DNA of 64,000 bases, taken from Massalongia carnosa. Its lineage: Eukaryota. The stretch is from the NCBI GenBank assembly GCA_965645245.1, contig OZ287074.1, positions 1,302,001 to 1,366,000 on the forward strand, written 5' to 3'. This document shows, piece after piece, positions 9,701 to 57,748 of the stretch; positions within the stretch are counted from its first letter, which is position 1; each line of letters starts with the position of its first letter. Below the pieces are notes generated by a model. The model was not told the origin of the DNA and did not search any database. It saw nothing but the letters and a program-made list of their open reading frames with translations. The position numbers were made by a program, and so were the translations under genes.

Positions 9701-11208
9701 GGATCGTCCTTGTTCACACAAAGCAAGCTCATACAAGCCAAGATGGTCACAGCGGAAACTTTTTCCGGGGGAAGAAGCTGAAGGAATGGCCCATAAAAAC
9801 ATCGCTCCAGGTCCGCTTCACCCCTCGTTTGCTTTGATTCGGCTTCATTGGCTTTCACTATCTCTTCTTTAATCATGGTGGTTAATTTTTCGTGCCAAGT
9901 CCACATGCATGCCCCAATGTTGGCTTTCGATAGTCCAGCGTCAATTCCTATCCGCTTCAAGTTTTCGCTTTCAGAACGCCAACGTTCAATAGCAGCCGTT
10001 GTAGTGTCAGCTTCGAGCTGTCGTTGGCGCTTTACAGCAAAACACTCTCCTCTTTCCAGTTCCGTTGTGCCATGTCGACCAGCCAACAACTGCTTTGAAG
10101 TTTTAGAGAATATCGCCAACGCTTTCTTAAGTGCAGGGAAGTTGGTGCCTTTCTGCAACATTTCTTTCACTTTAGGGATATCAGTAGCGGTTTCAGCCGA
10201 CGGATGGATTAGCTGTGGCGTTGAATCTGTTAACATTGAGTCTCTATCTATTTCTTCATAGATTTCGCTGACGAGGTTTGGGGCGATCTATAAGCCCATC
10301 AGCCTTGGTCCCTGCCGAAGTATCTGCCCACATACCAACGTAGCCCTCCCAAAGTCTTGCTCGCTAGCCAGAATTTGTAGCCTTGCTAATGTTCCATCCA
10401 GGAGTCCAGCTTCATCTGCAAGAGAGAAATATCTTTTTATCGTCCGATTGGCCTTCGAGGCATTCGATTCTTGAAGGGCAGTATGTATCATGAAGGCGTA
10501 GGTGCTTGCATCCGCTATTACCCCAGCACCTCTTATATCTACTTCAAACCATTTATATACATCCCTTAACATGGTTTGATCCTTCGTCCGAACCACGATC
10601 TGAACAAGTTCTCTTAAGTAGTCGTTATGCGCAGCGATTAACTCAGGCGCTTCAGGCTTGAGTACGTGGTTCAATCTCCGCATTATAGTCGCGGCCCGTG
10701 GAAAGCGTCCTACTTGAAGACAGGCACGAAAAATTTCCATGATCTCTGGCATACTTCCACCAATTGCGCTCGGCGTATGAATCTTGAGCCTTGGCGGCCG
10801 GCTTGTAAGAGTATCATCAATAATGATGGGGTTTTCTGGGTCGAGTGGTCGAATAGTCGCTAAAGCAATTCGTTCGAGCCATGGGCGGGTAATGTTTGTC
10901 GGTTGTTGAAGAGCTACAGGCAAACCTTCGAATGGAACAAAGTCATCTGGCGGTATATTATACTCCGCTGGTGAAGCTGATGCGAGGCCTCGCGATTTTG
11001 ATAGCAGTTCGGCGGCAGTTAATTGAAATAGACTGGTCCGAATGTTAGGTTTCGATCTACGTTTATTTATGGTTGATGTCTTTCGAGAACGCGAGGCGAT
11101 TGTATACAAGAAGGGACATAGCCATGGCAAGTGTAGGCCATCTGAAGCATGTTGCCACTGTCTGAAGGTTTCTGCCTGTATTCTTTGCTTCGAGGCTCGA
11201 GCGAACAT
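6732..11208 (-). CDS. RPO41: Mitochondrial DNA-directed RNA polymerase (T7-like, nuclear-encoded)
   Basis: Motifs DFRGRAYP, HQDGTCNGLQHYAALG, RKVVKQTVMTNVYG, PPNFIHSLDA, SVHDSFWT, C-terminal SQYFFS*; N-terminal exon MFARASKQR resembles a mitochondrial presequence. Confidence 0.97.
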
Positions 11209-11331
11209 GTTCGAGGGAAGTTCACCATGAAGAAAACGAAGGATTAAGAGGCTCAAGAAAAATACCTTTGCAAAAGGAGATTTTCTTTACATGCGCTTGC
11301 CCACAGACCACCCGCGCCACAGCGAAGCCAC

Positions 11332-12380
11332 TTGCCTCAGTACCTCAGACGTGCGTGGGCTCTAGGAGCCGTCTAAGCCCCTCCAGGTTAGCCTATTTCG
11401 CTAAGCTCCTTCGGATTAGCGTCCCAGCTGACTAACGAAGCGCAAGGTGGTGATAGAAATTTGCCTCAGTACCTCAAACGTGCCCGGCTAAGCCCCTTCG
11501 GGTTAGCATTATAGAACTTAAGCCCCTTCGGGTTAACAGGCTGACTACGCACCACATCTGTAGCAAGTCTGAGCCCAAAACTCAAGATTACGGTCAGATA
11601 TGGCTTAACGATCATGACAAGAACGATTTTGACCTTATAGAACAACGTCACAACTTCATTATTTTCATGTTTGTAACGTCGTCGTCGCTTGATATGATCA
11701 TGATCAATGTATTTTTTATTTTTTCGTTATAAATTTCAATCTTTATTTATGTTTATTACGTGCAGAACAATTTTACATACATCTTGTTATTTTCGTTAAG
11801 TCGATTCTCGATTTTTATGCGAAGTGCAATCAGATTGTCCCACATGAACTTTACAACGAACAGGAATTTCAGGAAACTTTCTATACAAAGTCTACTTGAA
11901 TTCTTTCGAAGAAATAGCCCGTGTCAAACGAAAAAGCAAGACGTCAAAATGTCGAAAAATCGCAATAATACACGATTTATTACGAATATCTGACCGTAAT
12001 ATTGTGTTTTGCGCTCAGACGTGCTATCGCAGCCACGTTAGTCAGCTGGGACGCTAATCAGAAGGAGCTTAGCGAAATAGACTAACCCGGAGGGGCCAAG
12101 AGCCCACGCACGTCTGAGGTATTGCTACATAGTAGTACAGATGTGCTGCGTAGTCAGCCTGTTAACCCGAAGGGGCTTAACGTTCTGTAAGGCTAACCCG
12201 AAGGGACTTAACCGGGCACGTCTGAGGCAAGAAGCCACTAATTATTACAGATATATTATGTAATCACGCTCTTGTAGATATTTTGCCTGGCCAAGCCCCT
12301 TCGGGTTAACAGGCTAACTGTGCGACTAATCAGAAAGAGCTTAGCGAGATAGGCTAACCCGGAGGGGCATAGACGGCTCT
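11332..12380. mobile_element. Cluster of modular hairpin repeats (arms A and B in both orientations); probable non-autonomous element
   Basis: B' 11332-11437, A 11461-11562, B 12027-12125, A' 12136-12230, partial arms 12284-12380; a near-identical A+B copy lies at 57548-57748. Confidence 0.8.
11561..12026. mobile_element. MITE-like segment with 41-bp inverted repeats and AT-rich interior
   Basis: 11561-11601 TAGCAAGTCTGAGCCCAAAACTCAAGATTACGGTCAGATAT is the reverse complement of 11986-12026 with 4 mismatches; TA at both outer ends. Confidence 0.8.
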
Positions 12381-12831
12381 TAATAATTGTAGGTATTTCA
12401 TTTTATCATAACAACATAACAAACCACTCATCGGTCTTCAAGCGAAAACTCGCTGGCTGTATTTTTCATTATGCTTATTACTCACCAGATCTTCTTATGT
12501 TTATGGCTTAAACGATGAATATTGGTTTTTCAGCTACACGTCCTAGTCTGTCTGTTCTATGGCCAAGAAGATTTAGCGTTGTTTGTATTTCTTGGTTTGA
12601 TTGTTGTCCTTGCTTCTGCTCCGCTTTGTGAAAGTGTCTCAATCTAGATGCCATTGTGGTTAACCTGTTTTGTCTTCTTTGTATGTACTATGGGATCATT
12701 CAAAAATGATTCGTATCATGCATGCCTTTGTTGCTCTTGTTGCCTAGCATTGTGGTAGACAATATATAACCGGGCGAAATATAGATCCAATGTCTTCATA
12801 ATCTTCACGCAATCAAAACCAAACTTGAGCT

Positions 12832-13563
12832 ATGGATTTCCAAAACGGTATTCCATCGCAAAACGGAATCGACTCTTCAACTAAGAACAATAATGATGAG
12901 ATTCGTGACACTGTGGGTTTATTGATCATCGATCGGGATAATTTGAACGAAGAAGTTAAATACGCGAGGTCTACGATTCTTCAACTTGAAGAGCAGAACA
13001 AACAATTCGATCGTCTTCTCTGCGAATCGCAACTGAACCTGAAAATAGCCCTGTCGGTTAGGGAGATGCCTAAACCCAAATCTCCACTGGGTACGTCCTG
13101 GATAGGGGGTACATGGCTTTCTTCCTCCGCTGCCGCTCCACTTCTCGGCCCAGTGGAAGCCGCTTGGCAAAGTGGCCAAGCCCAAAGAGCTCTCATACTA
13201 CTGGGTCCAATTTTACAAGACGAAGTACTTCCCAGCAGCCAATATATCGAAGCAAAGCTCCTTTTGTCTGCTATTCTTAGATGTTCGGGAGATCCCAACC
13301 AATCTCTTCGTCACATTGAAGCTGCTCTGCAAATCGCTCTGGAAAAAGAACTGCATGAGCTGATAGGCAAGGCTCACTTTCATAGAGGACTCTGTTATCT
13401 CCACCTCGAGAGATATGCCGATGCTAGATGGTGCTTTGTATTGGGTGCGCATCTTAAAGGGCATGGGGAGATGATTGACGTCAACAGAGAGCACGCAGAG
13501 CTAAAGGCTCGAAACCTACCAGCAGGACACGTAGGCCGGACGCTCAATTTACGCGGTACTTGA
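12832..13563 (+). CDS. Hypothetical protein with coiled coil and TPR-like helical repeats, intronless
   Basis: 243-aa ATG ORF; TPR-like segment GKAHFHRGLCYLHLERYADARWCF. Confidence 0.7.
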   Translation: MDFQNGIPSQNGIDSSTKNNNDEIRDTVGLLIIDRDNLNEEVKYARSTILQLEEQNKQFDRLLCESQLNLKIALSVREMPKPKSPLGTSWIGGTWLSSSAAAPLLGPVEAAWQSGQAQRALILLGPILQDEVLPSSQYIEAKLLLSAILRCSGDPNQSLRHIEAALQIALEKELHELIGKAHFHRGLCYLHLERYADARWCFVLGAHLKGHGEMIDVNREHAELKARNLPAGHVGRTLNLRGT

Positions 13564-43735: not shown

Positions 43736-44902
43736 CTAGATGGAGGTGCCCGGCGGCGCTCCGGATCGATGCCCTGGTTGACCTGTACGCCCAATGGAAT
43801 GCCCAATTGAGTAGGGGTAGGAGTTTGTAGGATTCGTCTCGGCGACGATAGCACGTGGGACTGCTAGAGGGATGCCTTTTTGAAAACTGAGGTTCAAATT
43901 GAATAGTGAGGCCTGGGACGTCTGAAAGTATAGCTGAAACGCGTTTGATGACCATCTTCCAAGTCTCTGAATACTCTCATCCAGCATCCCGTGGTCGGCG
44001 GCGTGTTGTGCTGCTCCTTTTCTGAAGCTGTGTCCCGAGTATGCCGAGTCGTTGATGCCGGCGGCTATCAGTCTCTTTTTCAGGGATGCTATGACGGAGG
44101 CTCTGGTGAATGCGGTGCCGAGACGAAAAAGCGGGGATGTAGATGGCTGAGGATCATTTCTGAAAAGACGCCGTAGTGCTGTCACGGGGCAAGTGCTCTC
44201 ATTGGTCGCTGCCAGCACTATCTGAACTCCTGAGTGATTTGTGTCTGTTTTGCTTCTTTTGAGACGTAATGTCGCGTATTGATCGTTCTCGGCGAATGAG
44301 ATGTCACCTCGTGTAGGTTTCAATCTCTGAAAAGATGTCTTCTTACGATCGGCGACAGTGTAGGTGATTTCCCCGAGTCTGAGGAACCCTGCCCATGCAA
44401 CTTTGAATGTCGCGTCGATGTTGAGGTCTTCGGCCGAATGAGCGGGAATACTGGTGATTTTTGTCAGTAATTCTTTTGAAATGGGTAGGCGTCTTCTTTT
44501 TGTCTGAGAAAAGATCCTTTTTCCCCCTTTCAGCATCAATTGAAGTCTCGGCCCCTCGAATGGGGTGAGGCCGTATCCTCGGTCTACATGGTATGATCTG
44601 AGGCCGGCGAGGTAGCTCGCTGCCGTCTCTGGTTTTATCTTTCCCTGCTTGGGTGTGCCGCCCCCGTATAGTCGACCGGCTAGCCATTCCTCGAGGGACT
44701 CGGTTGTTGCAGGCCACGACGTGCGTCCCGTCGTCGCGCAGAATGCCTCGTATGAGTCGATCGCCGTCCCGTACCCTTTTCTCGTGTCCGCCGAGTGTCC
44801 GTGCCAGACGAGGCGTTTTACCAGGGCTGACCCTGGTGTGGAGGATAGGTAGGTGGAGGGAGGTTCATCGAATTGTATGGGTTCCGCCAATGAGGGCAAA
44901 AG
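43736..44902 (-). CDS. Tyrosine recombinase of the retrotransposon
   Basis: Catalytic set intact: FLRLGE (R), KRSKTD (K), GHSFRKG (HxxR), LGRWSS (W), FQLYF (Y). No AUG before residue ~121. Confidence 0.93.
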   Translation of the reverse strand, partial: LLPSLAEPIQFDEPPSTYLSSTPGSALVKRLVWHGHSADTRKGYGTAIDSYEAFCATTGRTSWPATTESLEEWLAGRLYGGGTPKQGKIKPETAASYLAGLRSYHVDRGYGLTPFEGPRLQLMLKGGKRIFSQTKRRRLPISKELLTKITSIPAHSAEDLNIDATFKVAWAGFLRLGEITYTVADRKKTSFQRLKPTRGDISFAENDQYATLRLKRSKTDTNHSGVQIVLAATNESTCPVTALRRLFRNDPQPSTSPLFRLGTAFTRASVIASLKKRLIAAGINDSAYSGHSFRKGAAQHAADHGMLDESIQRLGRWSSNAFQLYFQTSQASLFNLNLSFQKGIPLAVPRAIVAETNPTNSYPYSIGHSIGRTGQPGHRSGAPPGTSI

Positions 44903-46521
44903 TTAGCCAATCTTTCATCATCAAAACGTGACAGGGCATCTGCTAGTCCATTGGAAGTGCCACTGATCCATTGACAACGTAGTACGATGTCCCACTTTGC
45001 AGCTATGGACAGTATTTCTCGTAGAGGCGCGTTGGCCGGTCCCTTGAGGGTTAGATTCGTGAATCCTGTGTATGCTGTGTTGCTGTCGGTAAAGACAAGG
45101 ATCTGTCGATGTCGCCATGTCGGCGCCCATTTCTGAAGGATTAGAAGGATAGCCTCGACTTCTCAGACGTTTATGCTCGGTGATTCTTCCTGATTGAGGA
45201 CTAGGACTCGGGCCCTACATGCGTTTTTTTGATTCACGAGCTCGTTGTCTTGTTGAAAATAGCCTCCGAGACCCGTGAGGCATGCATCCGTATGCACCTT
45301 GATCGTGTCTCGTGTTGACGTCTCGAAGAAGACAATACCGTTGAAGTCCACTAAAAGTTTGTTCCACCAGATGAGATCCTGTCTGACCCATGTGGGAATT
45401 CTTCTTTTGACCCGACGATGACTGCCCGAGGGAAATGAGGCTATAAAATTCCAGAATAATCGTAAGAAGACTCGGCCCAATTTGACTGCCTGTGCGCAGA
45501 AGCTTAGGAAGCCCGCTATTGACTGCATGTCGCCGAGGCTGATTGTCGTCTCGTTTAGTGCCTTTGTAGTGATGATTCTCGCTTTTTCCAGCTTGTCCGC
45601 TGGCAGACGAATAAGACTGTTGATAGTGTCGACCTCGAGTCCGAAGACTGTCGCTGTCGTTCCCTCGGCGTCTTTTGAGTCGTTTCTCGCGATGCCGAGA
45701 ATGTCGGTGAGAATGTTGTAGGCTTTTGTTTCTTGGTGCAATCGTTCTGACGATGTCTCGGATGGGAAAATTGCAACGAAGTCGTCTAGATAGTGATGTA
45801 ATCTCCATTGTAGAAAGGATTCCAAAATCCAATGAAAGCCTTCCGCAAAAAGATTGAAGATGAACGGGGCCGTCGACAGTACGAACGAAAGGCATGTCTC
45901 GGTGTAGAATTCGTCATTCCATCCGAAACCCAGAAGCCATTGATGATGAGGTGCGACGGGAACGTTTCGAAAGGCGTCTTTGACGTCTCTTTTCACTATG
46001 ACAGCACCTTTGCCCTCTGACAGAATCAATTGACTAATGTCGTCGAGTCTGGCGTATTGTAATTTGGATGCCTCTTCTGGAATGTTGTCGTTGACTGATG
46101 TTTGATTGGGATGAGACAGATGATGAATGCGTCGCCATCCTCCGTCATGTTTCGGGACCAAGCCGAGGGGGGAGGCCACAAATGGCTGACTCGGGGCGGC
46201 TATTCGTCTGACTCGGCCCTTCCTGAGGTCCTCTTGAAGCTTATTCTCGATCGTTTCCGGGTCCTCATTCACTGATGTCAGATTTTTTTCGATCCGAAGG
46301 ATGTCTGTGGGGCCTTCGTATCCGATTTGTACTCCGAAACGAAGGATCATGGGCAGATGGACTCGGAGGGGGCCCGGATACTCTTGAAGTAGAGTTGCCC
46401 ATGCGGACGGTACGAGGGGAGATGGGCTGTCTTTCAAACGCTGACGAGATGCGTCTACGAGTTGAAACGAAGGGATTGTATTTGGTCTGATTGGTGCAGG
46501 TAAGCAGGGATGGGACGTCAT
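44818..46521 (-). pseudogene. Reverse transcriptase-RNase H (pol) with one in-frame TGA at 45163-45165
   Basis: VPKHDGGWRRIHHLS, KRDVKDAFR, HYLDD, HTDAC; the frame continues past the stop as SINV*EVEAI...FTDS...NGLADALSR to TAA at 44818. Confidence 0.9.
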
Positions 46522-46566
46522 GAATTCAGCTATTGAAGCTATTCTACTGCCTCCTGCACCAACCCC

Positions 46567-47580
46567 CTATTTCTTCGTTGGGCATGTCTTCTGGCCATGC
46601 CCAGCCGCGCCGCACGATTTGCATTTGTGCTGTCGGTAGCACGACGGCCAGGTGCAGGTGCCGCTGTTGTACTTGTCGCAGATTTCCCCCGCTGCCTTCT
46701 CGGCCCTCTCGGCCCTGTCTCCTCTCGGGATCGGTCGTCGGGACGGCGGGGATCGTGAGCGGCGACGGCGTAGGACTGTGAGGGGGGTGCAGAATCGAGC
46801 TTGGAATTCGTCGGGCATTTTCCATTGGGATGCGTCGGATGGCTGAGACGCGATGATGTGGGCGTGGGTTTCGATGGCGAGGGGGAGGACTGCTTCCTGC
46901 CACTCGTACACCTTGGCCAGCGTGAGGATTTTTCCGTGGAATGCCGACATGGTGGCGTGAAGCTGTTGACTCGATTTCCCGAAAAGACTGACCATGATCG
47001 AGGTGTAGTTGATGAAGCTCTCGGTCCAGACGTCATGAACTGTCTTTCCGAAATCTTTGTAGGTCCCGGACGCCTTTCTCAACCTCAAGGCGCCGTCTTC
47101 AATGCCGATGCGGTCTTGATCCTTGTATGACTCGTATTGCATGCCGTGCATGTGTCGGAGGCGGGAGAGGTTGATAGCTTTGAATTTATTTGAAAAGATC
47201 TTGATGATCTCGTCCTGTGGTAGGCCCGCGAAACGGGGTGCTATGCTTCTTACTTCGAGAGGGATCTCACCTAGGTCCTCGTCGTCATCGCCGACGACAC
47301 GACTCGGCTTGCCAGCAGGAATGACGACCGCTATTCGGGCGTCAGATTCTCGGCGCATGCAGTCGATTTCTAGCTGCATTTTTTCCACCTCCTTCTCGGC
47401 GACCAATGCCTTGGACTCGGCAATTCTAGCCTCAGCCTCGGCCGCCTTCGCTTCCGCCTCGGCTTTCTTCTTTTGTAGGGCGAAGATTTGATTGGATTGG
47501 GCCTGCGTCAATCCGACAATCTCCTGGGGGTCGGGGACTATGTCGTCCATCAAGGTGCTTTGGGAACGGGTGTTCGTCAT
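46567..47580 (-). CDS. Gag-like ORF1 with coiled coil and C-terminal CCCH + CCHC zinc fingers
   Basis: CDKYNSGTCTWPSCYRQH followed by CKSCGAAGHGQKTC; first ATG at 47580. Confidence 0.85.
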   Translation of the reverse strand: MTNTRSQSTLMDDIVPDPQEIVGLTQAQSNQIFALQKKKAEAEAKAAEAEARIAESKALVAEKEVEKMQLEIDCMRRESDARIAVVIPAGKPSRVVGDDDEDLGEIPLEVRSIAPRFAGLPQDEIIKIFSNKFKAINLSRLRHMHGMQYESYKDQDRIGIEDGALRLRKASGTYKDFGKTVHDVWTESFINYTSIMVSLFGKSSQQLHATMSAFHGKILTLAKVYEWQEAVLPLAIETHAHIIASQPSDASQWKMPDEFQARFCTPLTVLRRRRSRSPPSRRPIPRGDRAERAEKAAGEICDKYNSGTCTWPSCYRQHKCKSCGAAGHGQKTCPTKK

Positions 47581-47583
47581 TGG

Positions 47584-47706
47584 GAGGTAGGGGCACCGAG
47601 ACAACGTGAGGTCGACGACGAGTCAGTGAGATTGGAAAAGCAGCAAGCACTGACAGCGAGGTAGGGGCACCGAGACAACGTGGGGTCGACGACGAGTCAG
47701 TGAGAT
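47584..47706. repeat. 49-bp direct repeat in the retrotransposon 5' leader
   Basis: 47584-47632 and 47658-47706 differ at one base. Confidence 0.92.
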
Positions 47707-57547: not shown

Positions 57548-57748
57548 TTGCCTCAGTACCTCAGACGTGCCCGGCTAAGCCCCTTCGGGTTAGCCTTACA
57601 GAACGTTAAGCCCCTTCGGGTTAACAGGCTGACTACGCAGCACCGTGCTATCGCAGCCACGTTAGTCAGCTAGGACGCTAATCCGAAGGAGCTTAGCGAA
57701 ATAGGCTAACCTGGAGGGGCTTAGACGGCTTCTAGAGCCCCCCACGCA
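57548..57748 (+). mobile_element. Second copy of the modular hairpin element (arm A fused to arm B)
   Basis: Nearly identical to 11461-11555 plus 12020-12110, without the inner TIR segment. Confidence 0.88.

Follow-up and report, generated by a model that had tools for sequence, protein, structure and literature searches.

In this study, we analysed a window of 64,000 nucleotides from the Massalongia carnosa assembly GCA_965645245.1 (contig OZ287074.1) and characterized a repeat built of small hairpins that lies at 11332-12382 of this window. The region consists of three copies of one non-autonomous element, and a fourth copy is found at 57548-57748. The element represents a high-copy, non-coding class II DNA transposon family of a lichen-type fungus, similar to MITEs (miniature inverted-repeat transposable elements).

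Copies of the element at the locus

The cluster is flanked by two divergent open reading frames (ORFs), a single-subunit RNA polymerase ORF on the minus strand that ends at 11286 and a TPR ORF that starts at 12829. Since the copies lie between these genes, the family may affect promoters.

The outer copy spans 899 bp on the minus strand (11332-12230), with a B-type end on the left, an A-type end with a short-form tip on the right and another copy enclosed between them. It was delimited by tips at both ends and by a perfect 8-bp flanking repeat, GAAGCCAC, which stands at 11324-11331 as the left target-site duplication and again at 12231-12238 as the right one. Its B-type end module (11332-11437, plus strand) is made up of the 23-nt tip and the palindromes at 11375-11390 and 11403-11418, both recognized as inverted repeats, and homology to other copies ends at 11437. 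The next 23 bases (11438-11460) separate the outer B end from the inner copy's tip as a single-copy filler; they have no counterpart in other copies, and the contig depth of public run X2 goes down to 712 over them. The inner copy (11461-12122, plus strand, about 662 bp) comprises an A-type end, an AT-rich interior of about 470 bp and a B-type end. Its left tip (11461-11483) is accompanied by palindromes at 11490-11505 and 11520-11535 and by an inverted tip core at 11563-11573; a direct inner core is found at 12014-12024, and the B end (12036-12122) is inverted relative to 11338-11437. The A-type end module of the outer copy (12136-12230, minus strand) carries the short-form tip TTGCCTCAGACGTGC and palindromes at 12163-12178 and 12194-12209, again seen as inverted repeats. 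Beyond 12227, other genomic copies run on with TACTGAGGCAA in the contigs of public runs aligned to the window.

The third copy (about 12282-12382, plus strand) is short and truncated at both ends. It was recognized by repeats and retains a tip remnant, a single palindrome of A type and a B-type end in inverted orientation without its right tip, with palindromes at 12293-12308 and 12355-12370; depth at 12320-12420 was about 20 times that of the flank in run X2. The copy at 57548-57748 (plus strand), identified by its tip and hairpin core matches, is a short form in which an A end (tip plus two palindromes) passes straight into an inverted B end, and the final ~21 nt of its right tip are absent. 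The same short junction of A and B recurs in other genomic copies (joint 11436>12145). The original prediction had listed arms in the order B', A, B, A', with A and B arms again elsewhere in the window. The latter are the copy at 57548-57748; the order corresponds to the outer copy (11332-12230) enclosing the inner one (11461-12122) and followed by the truncated third copy.

The repeat is real, as judged from its tip core and hairpin core, both far above shuffles or expectation, and from a repeat finder that returned nested direct and inverted repeats. The tip core CTCAGACGTGC has eight matches in the window at one mismatch or fewer, seven of them at 11344-12226 and 57560, while shuffled sequences gave a mean of 0.65 and none of 100 reached eight. 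The hairpin core AAGCCCCTTCGGGTTA has 14 matches at up to three mismatches against 0.48 expected, all within 11375-12370 or 57577-57722. The complete 23-nt tip, TTGCCTCAGTACCTCAGACGTGC, begins at 11332, at 11461 (with one mismatch) and at 57548; it occurs inverted at 12230 in the short form and at 12122 in a damaged state. The terminal inverted repeat of the element can be written as TTGCCTCAG(TACCTCAG)ACGTGC. An Rfam search of 11200-12500 at E <= 1 returned zero matches. The tip was observed in two forms, a short one (12216-12230 in the window; L039:3089-3102 among the metagenome loci described below) and a long one (11332-11354) with the eight extra bases TACCTCAG, and the inner inverted core resembles the short form. 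The 8-base insert of the long tip equals the target duplication in length and might be an old footprint.

Inverted tips and target-site duplications

The 23-nt tip was found inverted at both ends of 25 paired copies, so that the ends read TTGCC...GGCAA. Identical 8-mers flanked 18 of these 25 plus/minus tip pairs, and one more pair agreed at 7 of 8 positions. When up to three tip mismatches were allowed and the same site in different assemblies was merged, 17 distinct insertions remained with an 8-bp direct repeat, 16 of them perfect and one at 7/8, the outer copy with GAAGCCAC included. The repeat is exactly eight bases long: the ninth flanking base agreed at 5/17 and 4/17 sites, which is the chance level, and offset controls gave no more than 5/8 matches throughout 241 comparisons. 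Inverted tips together with an exact 8-bp duplication are the mark of cut-and-paste transposition in which the target is cut with an 8-bp stagger. These findings argue for a non-autonomous transposon that has terminal inverted repeats, duplicates 8 bp of target and is moved by cut-and-paste, a reading to which we give a probability of about 0.8.

Abundance, size classes and host

Contigs from four public runs were aligned to 10300-13300, yielding 88-1129 pieces per run. In three of the runs, with 250-1129 pieces each, summed depth over the element was 60-420 times that of the flank, with the rise confined to 11310-12218; in run X2, a flank depth of 858.8 compared with 102,205-360,953 over the element. 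Summed contig depth is no copy number, and we take it only as "hundreds of pieces". Loose contig ends with unrelated continuations were located at 11331/11332, at 11460/11461 and after 12227. Many contig joints corresponded to internal-deletion variants, the short A-plus-B form among them, and none of the joints listed (15 of 51) skipped the whole outer copy. Public runs that contain the window are labelled lichen metagenome or bear coded organism names. At least 122 metagenome contig stretches contained the exact 23-nt tip, and the ORFs beside these tip-bearing loci encode ordinary fungal domains such as Zn2Cys6, HeLo, P450, photolyase and transketolase. No exact match to the tip was found across 185,579 prokaryote species, each represented by one genome, or in a viral contig collection. 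The expectation of a non-autonomous mobile element with many copies was thus borne out by both the depth and the recurrence of the tip.

Complete copies measured 102, ~166-208, ~607-637, 692, ~794-806, 899 and 1470 bp, and copies of one size class were 80-95% alike. The family spreads in size from ~100 to ~1500 bp through internal deletions and nesting. At the lower extreme, tiny elements of ~80-102 bp (L039:3001-3102 and L106:301-380) contain little beyond two tips and one hairpin, and the one in L039 has a perfect 8-bp duplication, TCTGAGCT. The target duplication of L042:3001-3692, TGCGTAGT, falls within a conserved motif (GCTGACTACGCA) of another copy, which makes it a second case of a family member inserted in a family member. 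Among the copies of ~800 bp (L046, L061, L012 and L049) and of 637 bp (L051 and L073), transitions made up 145 of 189 and 36 of 39 variable columns, respectively. They were frequent at CpA/TpG and CpG and resemble repeat-induced point mutation or decay of methylated cytosine.

Architecture and folding of the ends

Each end is a module of ~95-110 nt consisting of the tip, one to three palindromes and an inverted tip core; the main palindrome has the form GCTAACCC-loop-GGGTTAGC, in which a bulge of one base is frequent. The 23-nt tip is shared by 152 tips from the window and 122 loci, and the ~100 nt that follow it fall into ~37-39 sequence clusters. These clusters have a common plan, namely an optional small hairpin adjacent to the tip, the main palindrome, often GCTGACTACGCAGC, and then GCACGTCTGAG-CGCAAAAC, which is an inverted copy of the short-form tip. 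Examples of the tip-adjacent hairpin are AAGCCAC-aa-GTGGCTT, GGCCAGC-aa-GCTGGTC and GGCCGG-taag-CCGGCC. With tolerance for C-to-T decay in the scoring, 101 of 126 unique ends were found to have an inverted tip core no more than 200 nt from the tip, at a median distance of 95 nt, against an average of 2.5 in shuffles; 13 of these 101 inverted cores were the far tip of tiny elements. The tip core in direct orientation was found in just 3 of the 126 ends.

When 16 subfamily representatives were folded as single-stranded DNA (ssDNA), a seventeenth being excluded as an internal mis-hit in L012, the tip core paired with its inverted copy in 15 of them, forming an outer stem that encloses small hairpins. 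The folds reached z <= -2 in 13/16 and z <= -3 in 8/16, and the B end of the window likewise folded better than shuffles (z -3.05). In L047, the first ~130 nt inward of the tip at 2667 (minus strand) contain at least four tandem hairpin units (GCTAAGCCCCTTCGG...) with CTGCCCT spacers; here the hairpin module itself has been amplified.

Palindrome variants and paired base changes

Palindrome variants were counted by the number of different flanks, taken as a proxy for independent insertions. The pairs were counted by script; in the MAFFT alignment, the bulged hairpins were out of register with the unbulged ones. The reference form, GCTAA-g-CCC-cttc-GGG-TTAGC, was associated with 21 distinct flanks. 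Changes on both sides of the stem were seen in GCTAG-CCC-tatc-GGG-CTAGC (A:T to G:C, 14 flanks), in GCTAA-ACC-tatttc-GGT-TTAGC and close kin (C:G to A:T, about 6 flanks), in GTTAA..TTAAC (2 flanks, the variant of the window), in GCTAA-gc-TCC-ttc-GGA-TTAGC (window) and in CCAA..TTGG (three loci). Other variants were GCTAA-CCCG-ttc-CGGG-TTAGT (5 flanks), a bulged form in flipped orientation (4 flanks) and two one-sided variants, GCCAA-g-CCC..TTAGC (7 flanks) and ..TTAGT (3 flanks). Different variants occur together in one element.

In total, at least five stem positions showed a two-sided change with complementarity kept. Two of five paired changes are C:G to T:A, along the transition bias of the family, and the other three (A:T to G:C, T:A to C:G and C:G to A:T) run counter to this bias or are transversions. 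Pair breaks private to the window, at 11385, 11508 and 12060, are restored in nearly all other copies (11385 A>G, 11508 A>C and 12060 A>C). The case for maintenance of the palindromes rests on this substitution pattern, folding energy giving a weak signal.

The hairpin variants quoted in the original prediction (GGCTAA..TTAGCC, GTTAA..TTAAC and CGCTAA-gc-TCC-ttc-GGA-TTAGCG) are present, as are the loops C-GAA-G and C-GGA-G on the other strand, and its compensatory substitutions were confirmed as two-sided complementary changes that extend to further subfamilies. The geometry of a 2-nt bulge and a 3-nt loop is possible but not unique, as a 1-nt bulge with a 4-nt loop fits equally well; ViennaRNA with DNA parameters draws the hairpin of the window as 5 bp, 2 bp and a 5-nt loop. 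Similarly, the C-GNA-G triloop exists in the window but is not family-wide, other loops being tatc, ttc closed by G-C, tatttc and tat.

Two further features of the palindromes were observed. In L054 and L117, the first ~60 nt after the tip contain the bulged hairpin flipped relative to the tip (GCTAACCCGAAGGGGCTTAGC), and such flipping in some subfamilies favours a duplex or cruciform over a strand-specific hairpin. In addition, the half-sites of the main palindrome, CTAACCC and GGGTTAG (for example, at 57577-57592 of the window), are permutations of TTAGGG, the telomere repeat of filamentous fungi, from which the variants CTAGCCC and CTAAACC deviate. This likeness may be a coincidence or a hint of a Myb-type binding protein.

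Observations that do not fit

A number of observations weigh against a cut-and-paste element of hAT-like type with maintained palindromes. First, as regards insertion, the inner copy is irregular, with a clean left tip, a damaged right tip and mismatched flanks (ATAGAAAT versus TGCTACAT) where a target duplication would stand; because it has no flanking repeat and its right tip is damaged, nesting inside the outer copy by normal insertion is likely but unproven. The in-silico empty sites of the 17 insertions were bridged by none of the loci, a result of little weight as all loci had been retrieved by the tip, and no excision footprint was seen in the aligned contigs or loci. Furthermore, the 17 duplicated 8-mers are all different and give no target consensus, and the tip TTGCC misfits the hAT motif YARNG at positions 2 and 5.

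Second, no transposase was recovered by Pfam searches. Among 14 ORFs of the window, which the original prediction had rightly described as holding no transposase, the sole match was an unrelated reverse transcriptase. Of the 64 non-redundant locus ORFs of at least 220 aa, the 50 searched (the 14 shortest, of 220-240 aa, being left out) carried host-type domains or nothing. Long copies of the family, translated in 18 frames at three loci with stops read as X, matched zero Pfam families, and they are AT-rich (GC 17-38%) and without ORFs. Domains of hAT transposases (Dimer_Tnp_hAT etc.), of Mutator-like elements (MULEs) and of Rep/helicase proteins were found neither in the window ORFs nor in the locus ORFs tested nor in these degraded long copies.

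Third, as regards the ends, closure of the module is partly by construction, the folded ends having been chosen for containing the inverted core. The A ends of the window fold no better than shuffles (z -0.69, +0.20 and -0.84). For the 60 nt past the tip, the median z was -0.58 in 36 subfamilies versus -0.04 in 40 flank controls (Mann-Whitney p = 0.006), and z <= -2 was reached in only 7 of the 36; perfect stems of at least 6 bp were present in 7 of 37 subfamilies versus a shuffle mean of 2.3 and maximum of 8. One-sided changes are tolerated in spreading lineages, with 7 flanks for GCCAA..TTAGC and 5 plus 3 flanks for ..TTAGT. Finally, the pairs just outside G-CTAA..TTAG-C showed no covariation (17/55 versus 14.2 expected).

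The long copies, which extend more than 3 kb inward from the tip, lie at different sites (L002:3001-6023, L065:3001-6023 and L044:2916-5938, with partial likeness to L068:3001-6023). The group of L002, L065 and L044 and, separately, that of L016, L074 and L079 have 1.5-3 kb inward from the tip in common; the latter three are 97% alike across 1.5 kb. Such copies may be decayed autonomous relatives or large non-autonomous ones.

Superfamily of the element

By the length of its duplication, the element resembles a hAT transposon, and we consider membership of a hAT-like superfamily about as probable as its opposite. hAT elements typically have 8-bp duplications and YARNG tips, according to PMC3014272, and the 8-bp duplication found here agrees with the first of these features. 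Fungal MITEs whose parent element is not known are conventionally assigned by such features; in Epichloe, those with 8 bp were placed in hAT and those with 9 bp and repeats of ~115 bp in Mutator (PMC3227409). In addition, hAT elements and MULEs are ubiquitous in fungi, as stated in PMC5751038.

Another or an undescribed cut-and-paste superfamily with 8-bp duplications, such as P, a Zisupton/KDZ-like group or a new one, appears somewhat unlikely. It would be consistent with a tip that misses the YARNG motif as given in PMC3014272, with the missing target consensus among the 17 duplications, with the failure to identify a transposase in window ORFs, locus ORFs or long copies, and with the absence of the tip and hairpin strings from the literature searched. 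Against it stands the known distribution of the candidates. In PMC5751038, P elements of fungi are reported from Pucciniales and Allomyces only; together with Merlin, Sola3 and Novosib, they are described as infrequent or lacking in Dikarya, and KDZ (Zisupton) is reported chiefly in early-diverging fungi and Basidiomycota. hAT, in contrast, is the common 8-bp family among fungi.

We regard as improbable that the family is a foldback-type MITE of Mutator-like elements, whose structured inverted ends and subterminal repeats would be bound by a MULE transposase. MULEs usually have inverted repeats longer than 100 bp and variable duplications of 8-10 bp, mostly of 9 or more, so that 8 bp is at the lower edge of their range, and the two ends of our element are alike over ~70-85 nt in the subfamilies L014 and L121. 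According to PMC5499845, Muta1 duplicates 8 or 9 bp, and its 145-bp repeat includes a palindromic terminal motif; binding returns when the palindrome is restored. Moreover, MULEs share with hAT the ubiquity among fungi noted in PMC5751038. In our data, however, all 17 sites had a duplication of exactly 8 bp, and 9-bp cases did not exceed chance, while the fungal Mutator MITEs listed in PMC3227409 have 9 bp. The two ends of most elements share just the 23-nt tip and scattered motifs, and no MULE domain was detected in the window ORFs or the locus ORFs tested.

The proposal that the element moves as folded ssDNA, its bulged subterminal hairpins being recognized by an HUH enzyme (IS200/IS605, REP) or a Helitron-type Rep/helicase, as the original prediction had suggested together with an integron-type mechanism, could draw on hairpins with two-sided changes near both ends and on the ability of the ends to fold into closed branched structures, but it is contradicted by the inverted tips and the exact 8-bp duplication of varied sequence at 17 distinct sites, by a hairpin that can point either way with respect to the tip (flipped in 4 flanks) and by the zero exact tip matches in prokaryote genomes and viral contigs, and we consider it hardly tenable. 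To our knowledge, IS200/IS605, REP, integron-type and Helitron elements insert without such a target duplication and lack inverted tips, those of IS200/IS605 and REP type being prokaryotic and inserting beside a short specific target, and their mode of insertion is therefore incompatible with the copies described here.

Proposed working and role of the palindromes

Under the cut-and-paste interpretation, a DDE-type transposase supplied in trans would make the 8-bp staggered cuts. Its putative binding site is the tip core, which is present at the tip and again, inverted, ~95 nt inside; with this repetition, each end resembles those of hAT, Mutator and P elements, where transposases bind subterminal repeats. 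The palindromes, which lie between these cores, might aid structure-dependent recognition or serve assembly as architectural sites. Possible forms are a symmetric duplex site, an extruded cruciform or hairpin, or a palindromic pattern like the terminal motif of Muta1 (PMC5499845). Whether the palindromes matter for transposition is, in our estimate, evenly balanced.

The opposite possibility, that they have no role in transposition, we judge rather unlikely. In that case, the symmetry would come from mutation bias or from sites for a host DNA-binding dimer. Bias could act by hairpin-templated correction of quasi-palindromes or by the same context-dependent C-to-T process on both arms. The strong transition bias among the copies (145/189 and 36/39 variable columns, often at CpA/TpG and CpG) is in line with this possibility, as are two of the three paired changes of the window, which are C:G to T:A and match the direction of the bias; the weak thermodynamic signal of the palindromes and the spread of one-sided variants point the same way. 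In contrast, other paired changes are counter to the bias (A:T to G:C in 14 flanks; T:A to C:G) or are transversions (C:G to A:T). Palindromes also recur at the same position in nearly all subfamilies although their sequences differ, and the coexistence of variants in one element speaks against a changed protein specificity.

A bolder version of a functional role, which we hold to be doubtful, is that of an 8-bp-duplicating eukaryotic transposon with ends read as folded DNA and not as duplex, each ~100-nt end being a closed three-way junction. The tip may pair with its inverted copy and enclose small hairpins kept by compensatory change; the fold may take the form of a cruciform or arise where replication exposes single strands, and may be recognized by an unclassified transposase. 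If true, this would perhaps explain the multiplication of the family to hundreds of copies.

Comparison with known systems

P elements duplicate 8 bp; their inverted repeat of ~30 bp is joined by another short one that lies ~100 bp further in at each end. This layout shares the 8-bp duplication and the inner inverted repeat with the family described here; the sequences are unlike, and a THAP transposase was not found. Subterminal hairpins, some of them bulged, also occur at the ends of IS200/IS605, REP/BIME and Helitron elements, which have neither inverted tips nor a target duplication. The ends of Helitrons and Helentrons are 5'-TC...CTRR-3' or asymmetric inverted repeats with a 3' hairpin, and no target duplication is made; the ends here, by contrast, read TTGCC...GGCAA and are flanked by 8-bp duplications. 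In parvoviruses, the inverted terminal repeats form an outer stem around two small hairpins, a T- or Y-shaped three-way junction. This is a structural analogy only, and only to the ssDNA fold predicted for our ends, since the element is a chromosomal transposon with target duplications.

Closer likeness was found with hAT MITEs and with Muta1. Like hAT MITEs such as EFT-11m of Epichloe (PMC3227409), the element is non-coding, of high copy number and heterogeneous in size; its terminal inverted repeat is short and conserved, its target duplication is exactly 8 bp long, and a tip-related motif is repeated subterminally. Unlike them, it has a tip, TTGCC, that misfits YARNG, it could not be linked to a hAT transposase, and its ends are closed by an inverted tip core and contain palindromes whose two sides change in concert. 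Muta1 and foldback Mutator-like elements (PMC5499845) also have long structured ends, and 8-bp duplications occur; the same source reports that the subterminal repeats of Muta1 are needed by its transposase and that the palindromic pattern matters for binding, features that may have their counterpart in the ends found here. Features of Muta1 alone (PMC5499845) are a duplication of 8 or 9 bp, tandem 12-mer repeats and a palindrome that is the 10-bp terminal motif itself; in our family, the length of the duplication is strictly 8 bp and the palindromes lie inside the end. Dici (PMC13469147) was considered as a relative and rejected, as it makes a TA duplication.

MITEs with 8-bp duplications are already known, fungi included. 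What is new is the family itself, its atypical tip, the conservation of this tip across assemblies, and the closed, palindrome-bearing end module with two-sided substitutions. In the literature searched, the tip and hairpin strings gave only two unrelated primer matches, and relatives could be listed in supplementary tables of surveys, which lay outside this search. A survey of one lichen fungus gives MITEs only as a class (PMC8773270).

These results document an abundant DNA-transposon family of lichen-type fungi. The identity of the 23-nt tip in the window and in many metagenome assemblies points to a conserved transposase or to transfer between species, and the conserved tip offers a handle for tracing the transposase. 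Furthermore, palindromes that covary, flip and multiply constitute a natural mutational series on the question of whether a cut-and-paste transposase reads DNA shape, which has so far been addressed just for the terminal motif of Muta1.

Elsewhere in the window, adjacent long ORFs were observed on the minus strand at 43736-47622, one of which contains a reverse-transcriptase domain (RVT_1, E 7e-10, 45163-46566). This ORF is a retroelement remnant unrelated to the hairpin element.

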